A stretch of DNA of 64,000 nucleotides from Eledone cirrhosa (taxonomy: Eukaryota), in assembly GCA_964016885.1 (NCBI GenBank), contig OZ024745.1:122264001-122328000 (forward strand), read 5' to 3'. The first letter of the stretch is position 1, and each line of letters begins with the position of its first letter. Made by a program: the position numbers and the translations under genes. Below, in pieces: positions 3,382-55,900 of this stretch. The notes under the pieces are model-generated. The model was not told where the DNA came from and made no database searches. It saw nothing but the letters and a program-made list of their open reading frames with translations.

Positions 3382-4418
3382 CCCAATGTTAGGCCTACTT
3401 TCTCTCCACCTTCTCTGACCTTCAGTGTGTCTCACATTCCAGATCTCTCATGAAAAACTTTGACCATTCCTTTCCCCCTTCCAATCCACTGGAATTTCCA
3501 TTCATCCATGCTTTATATGTAAATATTGAGTTAGAAATGTTAACACTGAGCATCAACTACTCCAATCTTACCAGTTTGGCAGGATGATGTAGCAAAGGCC
3601 ATGACTATTTATTTTTTTCCTTTTCTTATAAAAAAAAGAAGCAAATAAAACTACCCATTCCTATTTAATATAGAGAGGTTGATATTAAAACAAGTAATAT
3701 GAGATATCTATCATCATCATTGTTTAATGTCCACTTTCCCTGCTAGTAATGGTTGGATGGGTTTACATAGACCAAGTCAGTACTGAAGCAGGGCTACTGA
3801 TCTTCCAGACAGGCCGACTGGTCAACATCTTGCTCACATACTGTTATACATTCTATCGAGTGCACAGAAGGTGCCATGTCTTTTGACACAAACTGAAAGG
3901 TCCTCCCAACCCCTACTGTAATACAAATTATTTGACTAAGAATTCAATGTTAATTGCCTCTTCTGGTCCAATGATATGAATTTGGTGAAGCTTTTCAGTA
4001 AGTTATAGGCCTATGTAAATGAAAATGCTTGTTGAGTCTCAACTAGACAGCATTGAGGGTACTTTTGAATTTTTCCCACTGACCAATCATTGCCCAGGCC
4101 CTAAACACCCCAGAAATCTATGGATCTCATCACAAAGTTTATATTCTGACTAATGTTTCACCTTCAGTTTTTAGTGTATCAAGCAACATCAGAGACTGTG
4201 TTAAATGTTTTAATAAGTTTCATTAGTACCCTCAATGTTATCACGGACTGTAAATTGTTGTTGCCAAAATGCTATGAAGTGTTAAGTGGTTTTTTTAGAA
4301 CGAAACCAAGGGAGAGAAGTAGTTATAAAAGTAATAAGAATGTTTACAGAAAAGTTTTTAAATTATTTTCTGTAGACATTTAAATTAATTCACATGTATT
4401 TACTTTTATGTTTTGTAG

Positions 4419-16772: not shown

Positions 16773-16815
<43 letters not shown>

Positions 16816-16816
<1 letters not shown>

Positions 16817-17332
16817 ATATGTTGAAAAGGTAACACACTAGAGAGAGATACAGTGCGCTATCAATAAAACAGGGAAAGACCACCAGTGTATGGAATCTAT
16901 AACCTATGAAAGGCAGAGTATACACACGATAATTAAAAATATAAATTAAAGCGTGAATAAATACCTCTATAACTATATAATACACGTACTGCCCTGCCCT
17001 TAAACACGCTGTGACTTCTCTCTCCCACGTGTAGCTGGACGGTCACTTTAAAAATTCTCTTAGTGTTGTCTGAAATGTATAGCCTTACACACGCTGATGA
17101 ACCGGGGTTATTTCATTTCTGTCAACAACTTACTGGTGAAACAGATCACTTTGGATTTGTACGTGTGTTATATAGTTATAGAGATATTTATTTATGCTTT
17201 AATTTATATTTTTAATTATCGTGTATATACTCTGCCTTTCCTAGGTTATAGATTCCATACACTGGTGGTTTTTCCCTGTTTTATTGATAGCGCACTGTAT
17301 CTCTCTCTAGTGTGTTATCTTTTCAACATATT
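16816..17332. repeat. ~174-bp inverted repeat (16816-16989 / 17159-17332) in a (TA)n-flanked Penelope/retrozyme-like element (~16776-17437)
   Basis: Arms are reverse complements with few mismatches; TA arrays on both sides. Confidence 0.9.
17087..17168 (+). ncRNA. Complete type I hammerhead ribozyme
   Basis: Stem I acacacg/cgtgtgt; CTGATGA; stem II accgg/ctggt; GAAA; stem III cagatc/gatttg; GTA triplet, predicted cleavage after 17161. Confidence 0.8.
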
Positions 17333-17564
17333 TATTTTAAAGAGCTCAGGATTTCCTCTCCTTTGAGCACATTATTTACAGGGAATGACGAGAGTCTATG
17401 GCTCCGTTAATTTATCGTGATATATATATATATATATGCAGCGAGACACGGTCACCCAACCTACCTTGCCTCTAGTGGGACAACTCCCGTCTAACCCATG
17501 CTAGCGTGAAAGATGGACATTAAAAGATGATGATGATGATATATATATATATATATCCTCCCCC

Positions 17565-30552: not shown

Positions 30553-30949
30553 GTAAATGATTTTTTATTTACTTATTTTGTTTATGTACGTTTCTCTTAT
30601 CTCACACGTGTGTGTATGTACTCACACACACACACCCATAAATACTTTGAACAGGCTAAAATAGACCGTTCGATATTAGAAATCTTAACAACAACAACAA
30701 CAACATCAAAAGTTGAAAACTGTGTAATATCCAATAATTTAATCAATCTGATGGTGAAATGCGTTTTATGAATGGCTTTGTTGAAAATGTAATTTTAGAA
30801 ATAGCAAAGGATCTAGAATTGCCATTTATCACAGTCTTTAAAATTGGTTACAAAACATGTTCCTACTTTAGAATTCGTTTCTTTATTAAGACTACCTTCA
30901 TTAATTTATATCCAATGAACTAAAAAAAAAACTAGAGACTAACAGTAAT

Positions 30950-31868
30950 AATGATGATGGTAGTGATTATGATGGTGGTGATTATGGTGGTGGTAATGAT
31001 GGTGGTGATTATGGTGGTGGTGATTATGGTGGTGGTGATAATGATGGTGATAATGGTGGTGGTGATAATGATGGTGGTGATTATGGTGGTGGTGATAATG
31101 ATGGTGGTGATAATGGTGGTGGTGATAATGATGGTGGTGATAATGGTGGTGGTGATAATGGTGGTGGTGATAATGGTGGTGGTGATAATGGTGGTGGTGA
31201 TAATGATGGTGGTGATAATGATGGTGGTGATAATGGTGGTGGTGATAATGGTGGTGGTGATAATGGTGGTGGTGATAATGATGGTGGTGATTATGATGGT
31301 GGTGATAATGATGGTGGTGATAATGATGGTGGTAATAATGATGGTGGTGATTATGATGGTGGTGATAATGATGGTGGTGATAATGATGGTGGTAATAATG
31401 ATGGTGGTGATTATGATTGTGGTGATTATGATGGTGGTGATAATGGTGGTGGTGATAATGATGGTGGTGATAATGGTGGTGGTGATAATGGTGGTGGTGA
31501 TAATGGTGGTGGTGATAATGATGGTGGTGATAATGGTGGTGGTGATAATGATGGTGGTGATTATGATGGTGGTGATAATGATGGTGGTGATAATGATGGT
31601 GATAATGGTGGTGGTGATAATGGTGGTGGTGATTATGATGGTGGTGATTATGATGGTGGTGATTATGGTGGTGGTGATTATGGTGGTGGTGATAATGATG
31701 GTGGTGATTATGGTGGTGGTGATAATGGTGGTGGTGATTATGATGGTGGTGATAATGGTGGTGATAATGATGGTGATAATGATGGTGGTGATAATGATGG
31801 TGGTGATAATGATGGTGGTGATTATGATGGTGGTAATAATAATGATGATGATGATTATGATGGTGGTA
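30950..31868. repeat. 15-bp-period (GAT/GGT/AAT/TAT) simple tandem repeat
   Basis: Units such as atgatggtggtgata / atggtggtggtgatt. Confidence 0.95.
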
Positions 31869-32619
31869 AAAACAGCAGCAAGTAATAACTACATCTTTCA
31901 TCACCATTCATTCCGTAATTTGAAAAAAAAAAAATAGAAATCCCCACCAATAATGATGGTGGTGGTGATGATGGTGGTGGTAAAATTACTGAAAATATTC
32001 TTTTTTCATCATCATTCATTCAATACCTCATTCAAAAAAACTAACAAAATATATCAACAACAGTAGTAATGGCGGTGGTAAAAGTAATAACTATATTGTT
32101 TTTTCATCATCATTCACTCATTCATTCAAAAAATCATCATCATCATTATCACCTTCAATGATGATGATGATGATGATAGTGATGATGATGATGATGGTGA
32201 TGGTGATTCTTTTTTTAAATACCACTACACATGGAATTTGTCAGAATGAATTCAGAGTAATGGGGACTGGGCTGGAAAGAAATGAGAACTGTCTTCAGCC
32301 AGTTTCGTTATCCTAAAATATAGAACAGCAGCAGTAATGGCAGCTTTTGCTGTTATTAGAGCTGTAGTAAAGCTGCCATTATTTTTGGGATGCTTAAACA
32401 AATGTGAGTTTATCATAAATTCTGTTTGTAGTGCTATATTGATTTTGATCAGTCTATTCTTTTACTGGTTTCATTGATACTCAACATCATCATCACCATT
32501 TTACGTTCATTCGTCTAACCCATGCTAGCAGTATGAGTGGCTGGTTATGGCTGGTTTGAACAGAAAGATGTGAGAGATCTCTGGCCACATATGACCGGTT
32601 TAAATGCTAAAGGGTTAAA

Positions 32620-38557: not shown

Positions 38558-41500
38558 GAGATAACCTATATCTATGGTCAACAGAATCCAGATCCAGTGA
38601 CACTGTAGACAGAGATAACCTATATCCATGGTCAACAGAATCCAGATCCAGTGACACTGTAGACAGAGATAACCTATATCTATGGTCAACAGAATCCAGA
38701 TCCAGTGACACTGTAGACAGAGATAACCTATATCTATGGTCAACAGAATCCAGATCCAGTGACACTGTAGACAGATAACCTATATCTATGGTCAACAGAA
38801 TCCAGATCCAGTGACACTGTAGACAGAGATAACCTATATCTATGGTCAACAGAATCCAGATCCAGTGACACTGTAGACAGATAACCTATATCTATGGTCA
38901 ACAGAATCCAGATCCAGTGACACTGTAGACAGAGATAACCTATATCTATGGTCAACAGAATCCAGATCCAGTGACACTGTAGACAGATAACCTATATCTA
39001 TGGTCAACAGAATCCAGATCCAGTGACACTGTAGACAGAGATAACCTATATCTATGGTCAACAGAATCCAGATCCAGTGACACTGTAGACAGAGATAACC
39101 TATATCTATGGTCAACAGAATCCAGATCCAGTGACACTGTAGACAGAGATAACCTATATCTATGGTCAACAGAATCCAGATCTAGTGACACTGTAGACAG
39201 ATAACCTATATCCATGGTCAACAGAATCCAGATCCAGTGACACTGTAGACAGAGATAACCTATATCTATGGTCAACAGAATCCAGATCCAGTGACACTGT
39301 AGACAGATAACCTATATCCATGGTCAACAGAATCCAGATCTAGTGACACTGTAGACAGATAACCTATATCCATGGTCAACAGAATCCAGATCCAGTGACA
39401 CTGTAGACAGAGATAACCTATATCTATGGTCAACAGAATCCAGATCCAGTGACACTGTAGACAGAGATAACCTATATCTATGGTCAACAGAATCCAGATC
39501 CAGTGACACTGTAGACAGAGATAACCTATATCTATGGTCAACAGAATCCAGATCCAGTGACACTGTAGACAGAGATAACCTATATCTATGGTCAACAGAA
39601 TCCAGATCCAGTGACACTGTAGACAGAGATAACCTATATCTATGGTCAACAGAATCCAGATCCAGTGACACTGTAGACAGAGATAACCTATATCTATGGT
39701 CAACAGAATCCAGATCTAGTGACACTGTAGACAGATAACCTATATCCATGGTCAACAGAATCCAGATCCAGTGACACTGTAGACAGAGATAACCTATATC
39801 TATGGTCAACAGAATCCAGATCCAGTGACACTGTAGACAGAGATAACCTATATCTATGGTCAACAGAATCCAGATCCAGTGACACTGTAGACAGAGATAA
39901 CCTATATCCATGGTCAACAGAATCCAGATCCAGTGACACTGTAGACAGAGATAACCTATATCTATGGTCAACAGAATCCAGATCCAGTGACACTGTAGAC
40001 AGAGATAACCTATATCTATGGTCAACAGAATCCAGATCCAGTGACACTGTAGACAGAGATAACCTATATCCATGGTCAACAGAATCCAGATCCAGTGACA
40101 CTGTAGACAGATAACCTATATCCATGGTCAACAGAATCCAGATCTAGTGACACTGTAGACAGAGATAACCTATATCCATGGTCAACAGAATCCAGATCCA
40201 GTGACACTGTAGACAGAGATAACCTATATCTATGGTCAACAGAATCCAGATCCAGTGACACTGTAGACAGAGATAACCTATATCTATGGTCAACAGAATC
40301 CAGATCCAGTGACACTGTAGACAGAGATAACCTATATCTATGGTCAACAGAATCCAGATCCAGTGACACTGTAGACAGAGATAACCTATATCCATGGTCA
40401 ACAGAATCCAGATCCAGTGACACTGTAGACAGATAACCTATATCCATGGTCAACAGAATCCAGATCTAGTGACACTGTAGACAGAGATAACCTATATCCA
40501 TGGTCAACAGAATCCAGATCTAGTGACACTGTAGACAGATAACCTATATCTATGGTCAACAGAATCCAGATCTAGTGACACTGTAGACAGAGATAACCTA
40601 TATCCATGGTCAACAGAATCCAGATCTAGTGACACTGTAGACAGAGATAACCTATATCTATGGTCAACAGAATCCAGATCCAGTGACACTGTAGACAGAG
40701 ATAACCTATATCTATGGTCAACAGAATCCAGATCCAGTGACACTGTAGACAGAGATAACCTATATCTATGGTCAACAGAATCCAGATCCAGTGACACTGT
40801 AGACAGAGATAACCTATATCTATGGTCAATAGAATCCAGATCTAGTGACACTGTAGACAGAGATAACCTATATCCATGGTCAACAGAATCCAGATCCAGT
40901 GACACTGTAGACAGAGATAACCTATATCTATGGTCAACAGAATCCAGATCTAGTGACACTGTAGACAGATAACCTATATCTATGGTCAACAGAATCCAGA
41001 TCTAGTGACACTGTAGACAGATAACCTATATCTATGGTCAACAGAATCCAGATCCAGTGACACTGTAGACAGAGATAACCTATATCTATGGTCAACAGAA
41101 TCCAGATCCAGTGACACTGTAGACAGAGATAACCTATATCTATGGTCAACAGAATCCAGATCCAGTGACACTGTAGACAGAGATAACCTATATCTATGGT
41201 CAACAGAATCCAGATCTAGTGACACTGTAGACAGATAACCTATATCTATGGTCAACAGAATCCAGATCTAGTGACACTGTAGACAGATAACCTATATCCA
41301 TGGTCAACAGAATCCAGATCTAGTGACACTGTAGACAGAGATAACCTATATCTATGGTCAACAGAATCCAGATCTAGTGACACTGTAGACAGATAACCTA
41401 TATCTATGGTCAACAGAATCCAGATCCAGTGACACTGTAGACAGAGATAACCTATATCTATGGTCAACAGAATCCAGATCTAGTGACACTGTAGACAGAG

Positions 41501-43078
41501 ATAACCTATATCTATGGTCAACAGAATCCAGATCCAGTGACACTGTAGACAGAGATAACCTATATCTATGGTCAACAGAATCCAGATCTAGTGACACTGT
41601 AGACAGATAACCTATATCTATGGTCAACAGAATCCAGATCTAGTGACACTGTAGACAGAGATAACCTATATCTATGGTCAACAGAATCCAGATCTAGTGA
41701 CACTGTAGACAGAGATAACCTATATCTATGGTCAACAGAATCCAGATCTAGTGACACTGTAGACAGAGATAACCTATATCTATGGTCAACAGAATCCAGA
41801 TCTAGTGACACTGTAGACAGAGATAACCTATATCCATGGTCAACAGAATCCAGATCTAGTGACACTGTAGACAGAGATAACCTATATCTATGGTCAACAG
41901 AATCCAGATCTAGTGACACTGTAGACAGAGATAACCTATATCCATGGTCAACAGAATCCAGATCCAGTGACACTGTAGACAGAGATAACCTATATCTATG
42001 GTCAACAGAATCCAGATCCAGTGACACTGTAGACAGATAACCTATATCCATGGTCAACAGAATCCAGATCTAGTGACACTGTAGACAGATAACCTATATC
42101 CATGGTCAACAGAATCCAGATCCAGTGACACTGTAGACAGAGATAACCTATATCTATGGTCAACAGAATCCAGATCCAGTGACACTGTAGACAGAGATAA
42201 CCTATATCCATGGTCAACAGAATCCAGATCCAGTGACACTGTAGACAGATAACCTATATCCATGGTCAACAGAATCCAGATCTAGTGACACTGTAGACAG
42301 AGATAACCTATATCTATGGTCAACAGAATCCAGATCCAGTGACACTGTAGACAGAGATAACCTATATCTATGGTCAACAGAATCCAGATCCAGTGACACT
42401 GTAGACAGAGATAACCTATATCTATGGTCAACAGAATCCAGATCCAGTGACACTGTAGACAGAGATAACCTATATCTATGGTCAACAGAATCCAGATCCA
42501 GTGACACTGTAGACAGAGATAACCTATATCTATGGTCAACAGAATCCAGATCCAGTGACACTGTAGACAGAGATAACCTATATCTATGGTCAACAGAATC
42601 CAGATCTAGTGACACTGTAGACAGAGATAACCTATATCCATGGTCAACAGAATCCAGATCCAGTGACACTGTAGACAGAGATAACCTATATCTATGGTCA
42701 ACAGAATCCAGATCCAGTGACACTGTAGACAGATAACCTATATCCATGGTCAACAGAATCCAGATCTAGTGACACTGTAGACAGAGATAACCTATATCTA
42801 TGGTCAACAGAATCCAGATCCAGTGACACTGTAGACAGAGATAACCTATATCTATGGTCAACAGAATCCAGATCCAGTGACACTGTAGACAGAGATAACC
42901 TATATCTATGGTCAACAGAATCCAGATCTAGTGACACTGTAGACAGATAACCTATATCCATGGTCAACAGAATCCAGATCTAGTGACACTGTAGACAGAT
43001 AACCTATATCTATGGTCAACAGAATCCAGATCTAGTGACACTGTAGACAGAGATAACCTATATCTATGGTCAACAGAA
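38558..43078. repeat. 4.5-kb homogeneous 54/52-bp minisatellite (~84 units, estimated from length)
   Basis: gagataacctatatc(t/c)atggtcaacagaatccagatc(c/t)agtgacactgtagaca with an optional GA deletion. Confidence 0.98.
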
Positions 43079-51207: not shown

Positions 51208-51261
<54 letters not shown>

Positions 51262-51300
51262 ATATTAAATAAATAGAAACTATATTTATAAAACCATATT

Positions 51301-51361
51301 TATTCTATTATATATATTTCAAGGGTACCAAAACTTTGGTACGCTCTCATCAGATAAAATA
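51301..51361 (-). ncRNA. Minimal type I hammerhead (left-arm copy)
   Basis: Reverse complement of 51419-51479. Confidence 0.65.
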
Positions 51362-51418
51362 CAAAGTTTGTTTTATAAATATTGACATATCCAGGAAGAA
51401 GATATAAAACAAACTTTG

Positions 51419-51479
51419 TATTTTATCTGATGAGAGCGTACCAAAGTTTTGGTACCCTTGAAATATATATAATAGAATA
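51419..51479 (+). ncRNA. Minimal type I hammerhead (right-arm copy)
   Basis: Stem I tattttat/atagaata; CTGATGA; stem II gag.gtacca/tggtac.ctt; GAAA; palindromic tatata stem III; ATA triplet. Confidence 0.65.
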
Positions 51480-52930
51480 AATATGGTTTTATAAATATAG
51501 TTTCCATTTATTTAATATCATTGAATATTATACTCCAGAAAACTTGTCGAGTGCTTCGAATCAGTTATAAACATATATATATTTGTTGAATTACCAACAA
51601 ATTAAATATCCCTTTTGCTTATATATATCGGTTTTGTTGACAACCAAACGACCGTTTAAAGGTTCTTCAACATGTATCATTTTCAACATTAATCCATTTA
51701 GTTTCTCTTAGCCAATATATTTTTTGTGCGTTTTAACAGGAACATTTTCTGAAGCTTTTCAAACTGGATCAAAATGTTTTCTTTTAGGTTTCCATCTGGC
51801 TCAGAGCTAATCTATATATAAATTTCTGTGGTTCTGTCACAACACGTAAAGAGATAGTTTGACTACCTCATACTATTCCTCTCTCTTTACGTTTGCTACC
51901 TACATGAATTTGTGTGTGTAAAAAGGAAGGGATGGTGAAAAAATGATGCTGTGTGCGAGTGTATGTGTGTGTTTGTGTAAATGTATGTATGTGTTTTTGT
52001 GTAAATGTATGTTTGTGCGTTTGTGTAAATATGTCTGTGTTGCTGTGAATGTATGTCTGTGGGTGTACTTTTCTAAGCATGTCTGCGTTTGCGCGTTTAT
52101 ATTTATATACTCATACATATAAATGTATGTATATGCACACGCATATACACATACACGTCAGCATCTTGAAAAAAATTCTAGTATTTTCATAAAGCCGATA
52201 ATGTAGTCTTTGTTGATTAATAAAACTTTCTTCGTTGTATGTGGGGACAATTATGAATGCTCTATTTTTGTTATCAACTTAATTCAGTACTTTCAACTTA
52301 ATATTTGATATTTATTTCCAAATCTTCATTATCTTTATGTTCATATAAAAGCTATTATTATTGGTTATATAATTAGAAACTTTTTTTCATAATTTTCAAC
52401 TCCTCTACATTTGGAGTTTATAGTGTGTCAAATATACAATGATAATATAGATAGCTGGTGCTTGATGTTTTCACAAAATAAGCTATCTACAGATCATAAG
52501 TGTTAAATCGGTTGATTTAATACTTTTGTTAATATATTTTCCAGGAAAATCACTAAGTATGATTCTCAATTAAATCAAGAATTTGGAGGGATTTAGTAAT
52601 ATAAGTAACTTTCTCATTATTAACTTACTGTTTGGAGTATAACTTTAACCCTTTAGCAGTCACATTATTCTGTATTTACTATTGTATTTTTGTGGTAAAC
52701 ATAATATCAAATCTATGAGATTTTGATATTATTTATTTTGATAATACCTTAATATTGGATGAGCAGCTGATTTCAGCCAGTTTGAACAGAAAGAGGTGAG
52801 AAAATTCTGGCCAGATATGGTCAGTTTAAATGCAAAATAAAATAAAATAAAATAAAAATTGATAGTGTATTCAGTATTTGTGCCTCATGTTTTTACTATT
52901 GCAAATGTTTTAAATTATTCACTATATATA

Positions 52931-55900
52931 TCATCATCATCATCATCTTCGTTTAACGGCCATTTTCCACGCTAGCATGGGTTAGACGGGAGTTGTCCCA
53001 CTTGAGGCAAGGTTGGTCGGGTGACCATGTCTCTCTCATATAGGACTATCTGGCAGGTTTTCTACGGCTGGATGCCCTTCCTAACACCAACCACATTTAC
53101 AGTGTGGAACTGGGAACTTTTTACCGTGTTACCTACACAGCCACATTACAGCGTGGACTGTGTGCTTTTTCTTGTGACACCTACACGCTCTTGATCTCAT
53201 TTATCTCATTTATTTGGACTGGATGTTGTGGTGCCAACTTTATAGAGAGAGGGTGGTGTTGGTGGGAGTGGGAGGGTAGGAGTAGTGGATTGGGGTGTAT
53301 ATTTGGTTAAGAGGTGCCTACTGACTGTAGGTTTCCTTTTGTACATAGGCAAGGCGGGTCTTCTGTATTACTGCGTAGCGCCAAAGATCTCGGTCCAGTG
53401 ACATTGTCTTAGAGAGGTGTAAGGTCGGAATTTATCAGATCGTCCCAGGTTTTTCTGGGTCTACCTACTCCATAACTACCATCAATTTTGATCGCCCTGC
53501 ACTTTTTTATATAGCTGTCGTCTTTCATGCGCATCACATGGCCATACCAACGTAGTCTTCTCTCGAGTAAATAGCATCTGATCCCTCTTATTCCTAATTT
53601 CTCACTTAGTTCATTTATGCTTTGCCGTTCACGTATATTACTATTACACATCCAACGGAGCATGCATGCTTCGTTCCTTTCCAGTCTACGCAGGGCCTCT
53701 GCACGCAATGCCCATGTCTCACTGCCATGTAGCATTGCTGTTTGTATACAAGCATCATACAATCTGCCTTTCATTTTTAGAGAGAAACCTTTTGTAGCCA
53801 ACAGCGGTATAAGCTCTCTGAACTTTTTCCATCCCGTTCTAACTCTGGCCACTGTACTTTCAAAACACCCTCCACCACTGATGATTTCGACACCCAGGTA
53901 ACGGAAAGTGTCTACTATTTCTATAGAACCATCGGGGTAATAGAAGGGGCTAGTATCCTGTGGACACTTGCTACCTATTGCACCTGAGCATCGACCACAT
54001 ATAAAGTCTACCTTCTTAGATAGTTTACCTGTGATCCCACTACATCTTTTATGTACCCATACTTTGCATTTGGGACATAAAATTGAATTTCTGCCTACTC
54101 CTTTCCTACACACTGAGCAAGGCCATTTCCCTGAGGGTTCCTGTGCCTTATTTTCCTTTCTACAAACTAGGACTTTAGTCTTAGACAAGTTAACTTTAAG
54201 GCCTTTTGATTCTAGGCCATGCTTCCATGTTTGGAATTTCTTTTCTAGTTCAGCCATTGATTCAGCTATGAGCGTTAGATCATCTGCGTATAGGAGTTCC
54301 CATGGGCAGCCGGTCTTGAACTCCTTTGTTATAGCCTGAAGGGCAATAATAAATTGGAGGGGGCTAAGGACAGAGCCTTGGTGAACACCAACTTTTACAC
54401 TAAATTCTTCACAATATTCATTGTTAATTCTAACCTTACTGACTGTTTCATTATACATGGCTTGTATAGCTCTCACAAGCCATTCATCTACACCTAGTTT
54501 TCTAAGAGCCCACCAGATAATGGAGCGGGGGACTCTGTCAAAGGCTTTTTCCAGGTGTACAAAAGCTAAGTAGAGGGGTTTACTTTTAGCTAGGTACTTC
54601 TCTTGTAGTTGTCGTACAAGGAAAAGAGCGTCTGTGGTACTTTTACTTGACACAAACCCAAACTGCATTGCATCTAGATCAATTTGCTCTCTGATTAGTT
54701 GCACTATAACTCTTTCTGTGACCTTCATGACCTGGTCAACTAACTTAATGCCTCTATAGTTTCCCCTATCTAGAGCATCCCCTTTACCCTTGTAGCAGTT
54801 AGTGATGATGCTGCTACGCCAGTTTTTTGGTATGACCCCATTCTGTATTACTTGGTTAACTATACGGGTGACCATAGTGTGTCACACCATACCAGATGCC
54901 TTCAACATCTCAGCAACTATCTCCGAAGGCCCAGCTGCCTTGCCTGTCTTCATATCTTTGATTGCCTTACTTATTATACTACCTTTAACTTGCACCGCTG
55001 GTCCTTCTATTGGATCGATTTGGGGTAGACTATCTTTTTCTCACTTATTCTCCTCATTTAATAGTCTCTCGTAGTGACACTTCCAAGCTATCTTCTTATC
55101 AGCATCAGTGAGGGCAAGTACACCGTTATCATTACGGACACACTTCTCCCCGACAATATCACAGTTTTCCTTGACACATTGTCTAGCAATCCTGAACATC
55201 TCACGTTTTTGGTCCTCACGTTGTAGAACATGCTTGAACTTTCTATCCTCTGCTTCTCTTTTTGCAAGGTACACTTGTCTCCTATCTTTTCTCCTGGCCA
55301 CTTGATAGTGCTTTCTACTTCCCCCCATCCTGCCATTCTTTCCAAGCCTGCTTTTTGGCCTTGATTGTCTCTTCTACCTTACTGTTCCACCACTAAGTTA
55401 CTCTCCTCCTGCCAATAGGTCTGCTCCAGCCACAGATTTCATCCGTTGCTTTCAGCAGGTTCACTTTCAAGCATTGCCACTGTTCCTCTATATCGCACGT
55501 CTCTAATTGCTCTTCCTTATTGTCAAAGGCATCAAGTAATAAGCTTTTAAATTTGTCACTGGCTATGGGGTCCTTCAACTTCCATATTCTTCTCCTCAAG
55601 GTAGGCCACCTCTGTCATCGAGTACGTCTATTTCTGACTGTGAGGTCACTTTGGGAGGTGTGTTCTTCATGGGGGAGGGATTTAGTGTTTACAACAGACA
55701 CTTTGTCCCGTCTTCTAGTAAGGATATAATCTATCTGGCTGGCGTGTTCCCCTGATCTATAGGTGATCAAGTGATTTTCACGTTTTTTGAAGTTTGTGTT
55801 ACAGATAGTTAGGTTATTGGCATCACAGAATTCCAGGATTCTGAAGCCTTCCTCATTTCTTATTCCAACCCCATAGCCTCCATGGATTCCATCATAACCA

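Follow-up and report, generated by a model that had tools for sequence, protein, structure and literature searches.

What kind of locus carries the same hammerhead motif on both of its strands? The question is posed by a fold-back in a stretch of 64,000 nucleotides of Eledone cirrhosa DNA (assembly GCA_964016885.1, contig OZ024745.1, positions 122,264,001 to 122,328,000; the whole stretch is called the window here). A preliminary description gave its extent as 51213 to 51583; the true element is 364 bp long and occupies 51257-51620, position 51583 falling within a TA run of its tail. We conclude that it very probably consists of two head-to-head, 5′-truncated copies of the pLTR and 5′ leader of a high-copy Penelope-like retroelement (PLE), laid down by one insertion into (TA)n. 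Its parts are as follows.

51213 to 51256, no strand: (TA)22, the left half of the target microsatellite (from sequence)
51257 to 51403, minus strand: inverted 5′-truncated copy with a “short” 3′ end ...ATCATTG, which appears as CAATGAT at 51257-51263 (blastn against a full-length copy)
51403 to 51523, plus strand: direct 5′-truncated copy of 121 nt, reference ~3521-3641 (blastn and sequence)
51524 to 51620, plus strand: one-sided “tail” of 97 nt, ending ...CCCTTTTGCTT (from sequence)
51581 to 51602, plus strand: stem-loop in the tail, ATTTGTTG/AATTAC/CAACAAAT (from sequence)
51621 to 51628, no strand: (TA)4, the right remnant of the target microsatellite (from sequence)

An inverted-repeat search returns arms of 126 nt (51252-51377 and 51403-51528, 98% identity, spacer 25 nt), five bases too long because (TA)n resembles the start of the tail by chance. 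The homologous arms proper, 51257-51377 and 51403-51523, are 121 nt long and differ by one mismatch (C at 51505 against 51275), as had been described. The copies themselves are unequal, at 146 and 121 nt: by blastn, the inner 5′ end of the minus-strand copy corresponds to ~3495 of the reference copy, L096, and the 25-nt “loop” is nothing but additional 5′ sequence belonging to this longer copy. T51403 is common to both arms and forms a 1-nt microhomology junction. The plus-strand arm is identical to 6 of 91 other sampled arms and lies within two mismatches of 27 of the 91.

The earlier reading of a short tail followed by TA repeats was half right. The tail exists, but the TA run at 51575-51584, which had been taken for the flank, sits inside its 97 nt, and the real flank is the (TA)4 at 51621-51628. 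The tail corresponds to the opening ~95-100 nt of the tandem unit that follows, its 5′ leader; in L096 the same sequence comes after ATCATTG and continues into the start of an ORF. The outer ends of the element, CAATGAT... and ...CCCTTTTGCTT, do not form an inverted repeat. The element at 51257-51620 has no ORF sequence.

A motif scan places a hammerhead motif in each arm, at the positions given in the preliminary description and with the tiny palindromic stem III noted there. Core positions are assigned by the hammerhead numbering scheme.

51301 to 51361, minus strand: mirror predicted minimal type-I hammerhead motif, complement of its core at 51317-51353 (motif scan)
51419 to 51479, plus strand: predicted minimal type-I hammerhead motif (hammerhead numbering, motif scan and fold energies)
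51419 to 51426 and 51472 to 51479, plus strand: stem I (from sequence)
51427 to 51433, plus strand: CUGAUGA (from sequence)
reaching 51459, plus strand: long stem II (from sequence)
51460 to 51463, plus strand: GAAA (from sequence)
51463 to 51470, plus strand: palindromic helix III, AUAUAUAU (from sequence)
51471, plus strand: A17 (from sequence)
between 51471 and 51472, plus strand: predicted cleavage site, after ...GAAAUAUAUAUA (hammerhead numbering)

The core residues C3 U4 G5 A6 N7 G8 A9, G12 A13 A14, the pair A15.1-U16.1 and an H17 that is not G are present on both strands. Helix I has 8 bp (one of them G.U), helix II has 10 pairs and a C.C mismatch, and helix III is AUAUAUAU. The pair 10.1-11.1 is G.U at this locus, not G10.1-C11.1; the 24 intact motifs in 39 older arms, a set in which the loci L065/L096 and L063/L018 overlap, have 12 G.U, 11 A-U and one U/U at this pair. 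The hammerhead fold of the 61 nt has an energy of -6.8 kcal/mol, and the minimum free energy fold is a different one, at -11.1. No Rfam hammerhead model matches, either at the gathering score over the whole window or at E<=10 in segments of 501 nt and 85 nt, and other Rfam hits are at chance level and far under cut-offs (RAGATH-34 at E 6.3, miRNA-like hairpins). The older arms carry 164 changes in 4646 aligned bases, so that the copies are too alike for covariation, and the core mutation rate in dead copies is close to that elsewhere in the arms. From their sequence, the motifs of both arms are predicted to cleave RNA.

Cervera and de la Pena (2014, PMC4209133) described opposite-strand pairs of minimal hammerheads separated by 100-700 bp. 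In the sections of that paper drawn on here, the metazoan PLE motifs share with ours the type-I topology, the long helix II and the tiny palindromic helix III, which suggests activity as a dimer, as well as thousands of dispersed copies and opposite-strand pairs. They differ in helix I, which has 4-5 bp in the Schistosoma motifs against 8 bp here, and in the pair 10.1-11.1, which is G.U or A-U in Eledone.

The family is large. With up to three mismatches allowed, the 37-nt hammerhead core has 3087 + 3120 = 6207 matches in the 3.0-Gb genome of the animal, while the reversed-pattern control has 0 + 0 in the same genome; in Logan contigs the read depth of the element exceeds that of its flanks by a factor of 10^2-10^4. 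We surveyed 87 independent loci with the exact core (89 examined, two duplicates dropped). In at least 45 of the 87 the 5′ end carries an inverted piece, in 66 TA-rich sequence forms the right flank, and inner arm junctions differ between copies. The two-strand layout is not supported as anything out of the ordinary; it is a standard PLE insertion product that recurs at many loci.

Both outer ends could be typed in 35 two-armed copies, 22 of which have TA-rich sequence on both sides. One end is short and the other tailed in 34 of them; no copy has two short ends and one has two tails. The binomial probability of this distribution under random pairing is 8e-10. The copy with two tails, L139, does not have a true end, since it continues into the next unit. 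At seven further loci the inverted tail end measures 12-13 nt, and the main arm is short-ended at every one of them. L107, with an 8-nt inverted tail end beside a tailed arm, is a possible exception of the tail-and-tail kind.

Most copies begin at reference ~3466, and 5′ ends cluster sharply ~57-90 nt upstream of the hammerhead. A stall of the reverse transcriptase (RT) at an internal hairpin was considered and rejected, the ends lying at the far (5′) side of that hairpin and not at its 3′ base. For the same reason, a putative start site of the RNA is the better reading of the cluster, as judged from these sequence positions. The interval from reference 3570 to 3619, which surrounds the predicted cleavage site at ~3594, contains no arm 5′ end out of 122.

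The arms match a PLE family, in agreement with the earlier view of a young fold-back with a Penelope-type minimal hammerhead on either strand. A search for GIY-YIG/RT Penelope ORFs linked to homologous arms, proposed at the same time, finds them ~1.2 kb upstream of the hammerhead. In L018/L031, L096 and other loci the GIY-YIG-like ORF shares the strand of the hammerhead, and in a search with its protein 150 of 57162 candidates are scored matches, at 73-100% identity. The open ORFs of L093-L095, which are 506-547 aa long, contain the RT motifs FDITMGSSDSAQ, YRDD and FLDV, a linker CxC...CPLxxxC and an endonuclease (EN) core VIY...YxGxT..FK.R...H, and they align to relatives of 900-970 aa at 29-42% identity. 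By tblastn, matches to the RT part lie upstream of a Pfam-positive GIY-YIG at 9 of a further 30 loci in the same genome (E 8e-7 to 6e-4). The neighbours of the ORF in an Atlas embedding search carry HTH_animal, DUF8422, GIY-YIG and RVT_1, which we take as a lead only.

Profile searches are silent on this ORF. Pfam assigns 0 families to the 506-, 531- and 547-aa ORFs, with no RVT_1 or GIY-YIG even at E<=10, and a profile of the ORF alignment reaches only a retron RT in the PDB, at E 0.66; of the four relatives, out of seven, that were compared with Pfam, only P0005 matches GIY-YIG, sub-threshold (E 0.0045). Since Pfam and PDB profiles fail, membership of the ORF is argued from motifs recognised by eye, from transitive similarity and from the embedding search. 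The four long stretches examined contain no intact full-length family ORF, and Pfam shows no RT in the ORFs near L018 and L004. The best 30 PF01541 (GIY-YIG) loci have neither the arms nor a hammerhead by motif scan and belong to other PLE families. An N-terminal endonuclease of the Naiad type, suggested by the GIY-YIG piece that starts the 1.7-kb copy L018, was likewise discarded, because longer ORFs place the RT upstream. A 667-aa ORF in L032 is unrelated.

The order of parts in L096 is a truncated copy that includes a hammerhead, ATCATTG, tail, ATG...RT...EN, a 3′UTR of ~1.1 kb, a second hammerhead, a second ATCATTG, a second tail and (TA)n. The two hammerheads, 3640 nt apart on the same strand, flank the ORF as pseudo-LTRs from a partial tandem. 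This arrangement can be set beside the EN+ PLEs of Craig et al. (2021, PMC8557442), whose insertions, in the portions of that paper used here, have an inverted 5′-truncated copy, a tail at one end and (TA)n targets. Common to both are 5′ truncation with an adjoining inverted truncated copy at the 5′ end, the tail at a single end, the (TA)n target, the hammerhead of the pLTR and the succession of RT, CxxC-type linker and GIY-YIG endonuclease. The tail is longer in Eledone, ~97 nt against 30-40 bp, and the Eledone ORF escapes Pfam. The fold-back pattern, then, is already described for Penelope-like elements.

A biochemical basis for such insertions is offered by Poseidon PAc of Anolis carolinensis, studied in vitro by Frangieh et al. 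(2024, PMC11167929). In the parts of their account considered here, both strands of the target are cut and extended, the tail is bounded by two adjacent internal RT start sites, the target is AT-rich and uncleaved RNA is the substrate. Drawing on that study and on the anatomy of the element, we infer a single event in which reverse transcription would be primed from both cut target strands. One cDNA would begin at ...ATCATTG, the proximal of the two internal start sites, and the other at the tail end, the distal one; both would halt early, at reference ~3495 and ~3521, and their 3′ ends would be joined via the 1-nt microhomology and then filled in. The Eledone tail resembles that of PAc in being the stretch between start sites, at the start of the unit and beside a stem-loop, and the vacant interval around the predicted cleavage site agrees with insertion templates uncut at the hammerhead. 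On the other hand, tail and hammerhead overlap the start of the ORF in PAc, whereas in L096 they lie upstream, with the tail end ~60 nt and the hammerhead ~220 nt from the ATG.

Could both arms instead derive from one cDNA that snapped back at an internal hairpin and served as the primer for its second strand? A 9-bp hairpin (CCAGGAA...TTCCTGG, reference ~3466-3506) does lie near many arm junctions, and the arms are almost identical. Such a process predicts copying of the first arm at full length and symmetric ends, while asymmetry is seen in all but one of the typed two-armed copies; the arms in the window differ in length, and their junction lies outside the stem pairing of that hairpin. We regard this origin as highly improbable, and return to priming on two target strands.

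The one-of-each pairing of short and tailed ends raises a further point. It hints that a two-armed insertion uses each internal RT start site once, so that priming on the two target strands would be coupled, a proposal we put forward tentatively and consider doubtful at present. A possible cause of coupling is that the two RT protomers of one dimeric particle sit at adjacent template sites. In the portions of PMC11167929 considered here, the two PAc strands show the same start-site use in vitro; the Eledone arms nearly always differ in site.

A chimeric or palindromic mis-join in the assembly would give a similar picture, and the Logan contigs, being unitigs of 50-100 nt, include none that bridges the hairpin. 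Yet the arrangement is found at no fewer than 35 of the 87 loci surveyed, where junctions and flanks are distinct, the arms in the window differ by one base and in length, and the pattern is a published PLE feature, as far as the portions of PMC8557442 used here go. The chance of such an artefact is, in our estimate, next to nil.

Equally little weight is given to a non-autonomous TA-target DNA transposon (a MITE or foldback element) or to a tandem hammerhead “retrozyme” that makes circular RNA. Inverted arms with TA flanks are superficially of the Stowaway type, and animals are known to have hammerhead repeats called retrozymes (Li et al. 2026, preprint, 10.64898/2026.07.22.740005); the metazoan non-LTR retrozymes, in the sections of the preprint drawn on here, are also non-coding, hammerhead-bearing and related to PLE pLTRs. 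Against a MITE stand the mismatched outer ends, one short and one tailed and thus not terminal inverted repeats, and the inner junctions, which vary among copies and leave no fixed internal structure. Against either element stands the colinearity of the arms with the 3′UTR/pLTR of an RT-EN element. Retrozymes form short head-to-tail arrays, in those same sections, whereas no same-strand hammerhead pairs less than 1 kb apart, and hence no arrays, occur among the 100 exact matches listed or in the 87 loci.

There remains the reading offered in the preliminary description, that the fold-back is a functional hairpin-RNA locus whose dsRNA, siRNA or ADAR substrate silences the ribozyme or the family. 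The predicted 121-bp hairpin is very stable, at -185 kcal/mol for 51252-51620, and sequestration of the ribozyme in dsRNA is physically plausible given the -6.8 kcal/mol of the hammerhead fold. Such loci may number thousands, and Rfam miRNA-precursor models score 50-58 bits, below their cut-offs of 83-230, scores that reflect merely a long hairpin. However, the form recurs at many loci with differing junctions, which is the pattern of a by-product, and nothing points to selection for a dsRNA role. ADAR-type A-to-G hypermutation is absent from the 39 older arms, where A>G (17) and T>C (21) are not in excess (G>A 37; 164 changes). Both arms also start downstream of reference ~3466, where most copies begin, and should the RNA begin there, the window copy is likely to be without the promoter of the element; it would give a long hairpin RNA only by read-through transcription. 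A functional hairpin is therefore, in our judgement, very unlikely.

The structure fits the published anatomy and biochemistry of PLEs, which makes the fold-back an ordinary insertion by-product, and since its arms are truncated pLTR copies, the hammerhead motif in each is a passenger. Most likely, the copy at 51257-51620 is dead. Taken alone, it matters little, being a truncated retroelement insertion of a known kind. Its relatives present a hazard for annotation, as such hairpins score like miRNA precursors and could pass for hairpin-RNA genes, foldback transposons or assembly errors. At the same time, a large, young and tidy family gives a clean genomic read-out of PLE insertion, with paired one-of-each 3′ ends, a sharp cluster of 5′ ends and no starts at the predicted ribozyme cut, and these features could steer the biochemistry of PLE integration. 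Coupled priming, if true, would be a constraint absent from the in vitro system as published in the portions considered, in which both strands use both sites alike.

A second element of the window, 16.8-kb in the earlier account, was said to share the layout but no visible sequence similarity. The best blastn match between the two is 23 nt at 83% (E 0.008), in keeping with that statement, and the layout is indeed the same: arms of 174 nt at 95% identity, a one-sided tail and (TA)n flanks.

The fold-back at 51257-51620 is a real, young and ordinary insertion product of a Penelope-like element (PLE), made of two head-to-head, 5′-truncated copies of the element's end region. Inverted-repeat detection places the arms at 51252-51377 and 51403-51528 (126 nt, 98%, 25-nt spacer), and comparison with the family gives arms of 121 nt with one mismatch, as the preliminary description had them. 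The right end proposed there, 51583, is wrong, since the TA run at that point is internal to a 97-nt tail. The two arms join at T51403, with a 1-nt overlap.

51213-51256, left flank, (TA)22
51257-51377, − arm
51403-51523, + arm
51524-51620, tail, 97 nt
51621-51628, right flank, (TA)4

Of 91 other arms, 6 are identical to the + arm and 27 have at most two mismatches to it. The one base at which the two arms differ is private to the − arm, at a site where 77 of the 91 arms have the family C. On this evidence the insertion is young. In Logan contigs from four sequencing runs, depth over the element is 10^2-10^4 times that of the flanks; none of these unitigs (50-100 nt) bridges the hairpin, and the single locus is neither confirmed nor refuted by them.

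Searching the 3.0-Gb genome of the species for a 37-nt core stretch at ≤3 mismatches gives 3087 forward and 3120 reverse matches, of which the first 100 listed are all exact; the reversed pattern, used as a control, gives none. A whole-arm DNA search of the same genome returned no match, the window itself included, which is an effect of masking. Once oriented, the family copies have about 175 nt in common, running from ATCCAGG via the motif to ATCATTG, after which comes either (TA)n or a tail of about 95 nt and then (TA)n. The full layout is seen in L096, the copy that serves as reference for positions, whose parts all lie on the same strand:

Part 1, truncated upstream copy with motif
Part 2, ATCATTG, after the upstream motif copy
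Part 3, tail, running directly into leader and ATG (MEFFRISSSLKDVPLPKNKEY...)
Part 4, decayed RT-EN (reverse transcriptase-endonuclease) frame
Part 5, 3′UTR, about 1.1 kb
Part 6, second motif, 3640 nt after the first
Part 7, ATCATTG, tail, (TA)n

Since the tail of L096 continues into leader and ATG, the tail is the opening ~95-100 nt of the following tandem unit. The family architecture is pLTR-ORF-pLTR-tail, where pLTR is a pseudo-LTR.

A search for Penelope RT/GIY-YIG ORFs linked to the arms succeeded: longer copies carry, about 1.2 kb upstream of the motif and on the same strand, an ORF with a GIY-YIG-like core (KCNCRIKSNCPLQNxCL, NVIYKC, YIGATSTKFKERWYNHKH). Its protein gives 57162 first-look candidates, and the 150 matches scored have 73-100% identity to it. 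In three loci (L093-L095), open frames of 506-547 aa extend upstream into the RT motifs MDIANYY, FDITMGSSDSAQITD, GGLYRDDMLLL and NFLDVTL, and align full-length with seven relatives of 904-969 aa (29-42% identity to the first alignment row, one near-identical pair excepted). The RT and GIY-YIG motifs were judged by eye, against PLE signatures. Pfam does not recognize the L093-L095 ORFs even at E≤10; a PDB profile search with the ORF alignment gave a retron RT at E 0.66 alone, and a Pfam scan of four relatives gave one sub-threshold GIY-YIG match. At 9 of 30 other loci of this genome, tblastn matches the RT part to sequence lying upstream of a Pfam-positive GIY-YIG domain, and Atlas neighbours, taken as a lead only, carry HTH_animal, DUF8422, GIY-YIG and RVT_1. 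Together, the motifs, the tblastn similarity and the Atlas neighbours support a probable RT-EN membership. A PF01541 search of the genome yielded 10597 first-look GIY-YIG candidates, and every one of the 150 scored passed the Pfam cut-off; the best 30 loci include no member of the family of the fold-back, and therefore the genome holds many PLE families.

For a survey of ends, 89 exact-core loci (28 from the genome core scan, 60 in list order, and the window) were mapped to L096, and 87 were left after removal of L103 (= L030) and L112 (= L111). The members of these two pairs (contig C1) lie 0.3-0.9 Mb apart with equal insertion structure and equal flanks, and are likely segmental duplications containing PLE copies. 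An inverted piece sits at the 5′ end of at least 45 of the 87 loci. For 35 loci it was possible to type the two outer ends, and 34 of these pair one short end, finishing at ATCATTG, with one tailed end; random pairing of the observed ends (65 short, 54 tail) would give this with P = 8e-10. None of the 35 is short + short, and the one scored tail + tail (L139) has, on inspection, a right "tail" that reads through to the leader and ATG of the following unit and so is no true end. Seven more loci show only a 12-13-nt inverted tail end beside an arm ending short; visual inspection also gives tail + short for L023, which the script had overlooked. A possible true exception is L107, in which a tailed arm adjoins 8 nt of inverted tail end.

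The inner (5′) ends of 122 arms are also clustered: 71 fall within reference 3456-3490, a 35-nt interval that opens at ATCCAGG, lies 57-90 nt 5′ of the core (position 3545) and may be where the element's RNA begins. A smaller group (12 of 122) lies at 3530-3549, on the 5′ border of the motif; none falls at 3570-3619, around the predicted cleavage site (~3594). The fold-back arms end at ~3495 and ~3521, both shorter than the common form, and the window equivalent of the ATCCAGG cluster would lie just upstream of both.

This anatomy matches what Craig et al. 2021 (PMC8557442) describe for PLEs: partial tandems and a high degree of 5′ truncation, an inverted 5′-truncated copy adjoining the 5′ end, (TA)n as preferred target, and a tail often at one end only, although that tail is 30-40 bp and ours 97 nt. 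It likewise matches the Anolis PLE as presented in Frangieh et al. 2024 (PMC11167929), whose protein cuts both strands of AT-rich targets, extends them and reverse transcribes from two adjacent internal sites, the stretch between them becoming the tail; its substrate is uncleaved RNA, and its hammerhead is protein-assisted. The structure of the fold-back and its recurrence are shown directly; for its origin, we infer that each end of a break in (TA)n primed one cDNA, one from the proximal start site and the other from the distal, and that both would have stopped early and then been joined head-to-head. Only one feature is mildly new, the near-absolute pairing of one short with one tailed end, which suggests coupling between the two priming events.

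A hammerhead-like motif is present on each arm, as had been noted, at 51419-51479 (+) and in mirror image:

51301-51361, −, mirror hammerhead-like motif
51419-51426, +, stem I 5′ strand, UAUUUUAU
51427-51433, +, core CUGAUGA
Between CUGAUGA and GAAA, +, long stem II, GAGCGUACCAA/AGUU/UUGGUACCCUU
51460-51463, +, GAAA
51463-51470, +, palindromic AUAUAUAU
51471, +, A17
51472-51479, +, stem I 3′ strand, AUAGAAUA

No invariant core position is missing, and the sequence allows helices I-III to be drawn. Rfam hammerhead models gave no match at gathering score in the whole window, nor at E≤10 on 501 nt or 85 nt; miRNA-type models matched the fold-back at 50-58 bits against cut-offs of 83-230, which only reflects the long hairpin. 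The case for a predicted ribozyme is weakened on several counts. The hammerhead fold of the 61-mer (-6.8 kcal/mol) is not its minimum (-11.1), two copies cofold via the palindromic stem II and not helix III, the helix II pair 10.1-11.1 is G.U or A-U in the family, the copies are too alike for covariation (164 changes in 4646 bases), and the predicted cut is not the start of any arm. Between subfamilies, conservation is 92-97% over the last ~170 nt, against 80-86% for the 3′UTR upstream, which fits selection on that final stretch in active lineages and does not single out catalysis. Judged from sequence, the motifs are passengers, and hammerheads by prediction only. Cervera and de la Peña 2014 (PMC4209133) already report minimal hammerheads with long helix II, tiny palindromic helix III and low in vitro activity, and opposite-strand pairs 100-700 bp apart, ascribed to truncated PLEs, as here.

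The proposal that transcripts may be self-silenced as dsRNA has a sound physical basis: a read-through transcript is computed to form a 121-bp perfect hairpin (-185 kcal/mol), which would bury both motifs. Such burial is generic, as any inverted insertion would lead to it. In older arms, A-to-G changes are not in excess. If the 5′-end cluster is the RNA start, the fold-back copy would lack the upstream part, presumably including the promoter.

The same insertion signature is borne by a second PLE-type family, represented by a fold-back at 16.8 kb:

16813-17419, second PLE-type fold-back
16816-16989 and 17159-17332, arms, 174 nt, 95%
17094-17142, hammerhead-like motif, only in the part kept by the longer arm

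The preliminary description rightly gave the two fold-backs a shared layout (arms, one-sided tail, here ~85 nt, and (TA)n flanks) and no sequence similarity; we found no real similarity between them. Its single motif is a canonical-looking type-I hammerhead with a 7-bp helix III. The family has 189 genome matches, against 0 for a control, with core position N7 varying freely (T/C/G/A). The shorter arm has its inner end no more than about 5 nt from where cleavage is predicted (17163|17164).

Elsewhere in the window, a 490-aa open frame at 53409-54881 (−), about 1.8 kb from the fold-back, is a different retroelement: it matches RVT_1 strongly (E 1.7e-29), its RT domain is interrupted by a PHD finger (residues 255-298), and broken frames adjoin it upstream. 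At 40504-42765, paired open frames of ~165-183 aa (40504-41001, 41572-42069 and 42214-42765, both strands) recur at ~1068-nt spacing; their Pfam matches are all weak (H_lectin, TehB), and the arrangement resembles a tandem repeat. About 1 kb at 30905-31937 is open in four reading frames over both strands (318-333 aa each), which suggests a low-complexity or periodic repeat.
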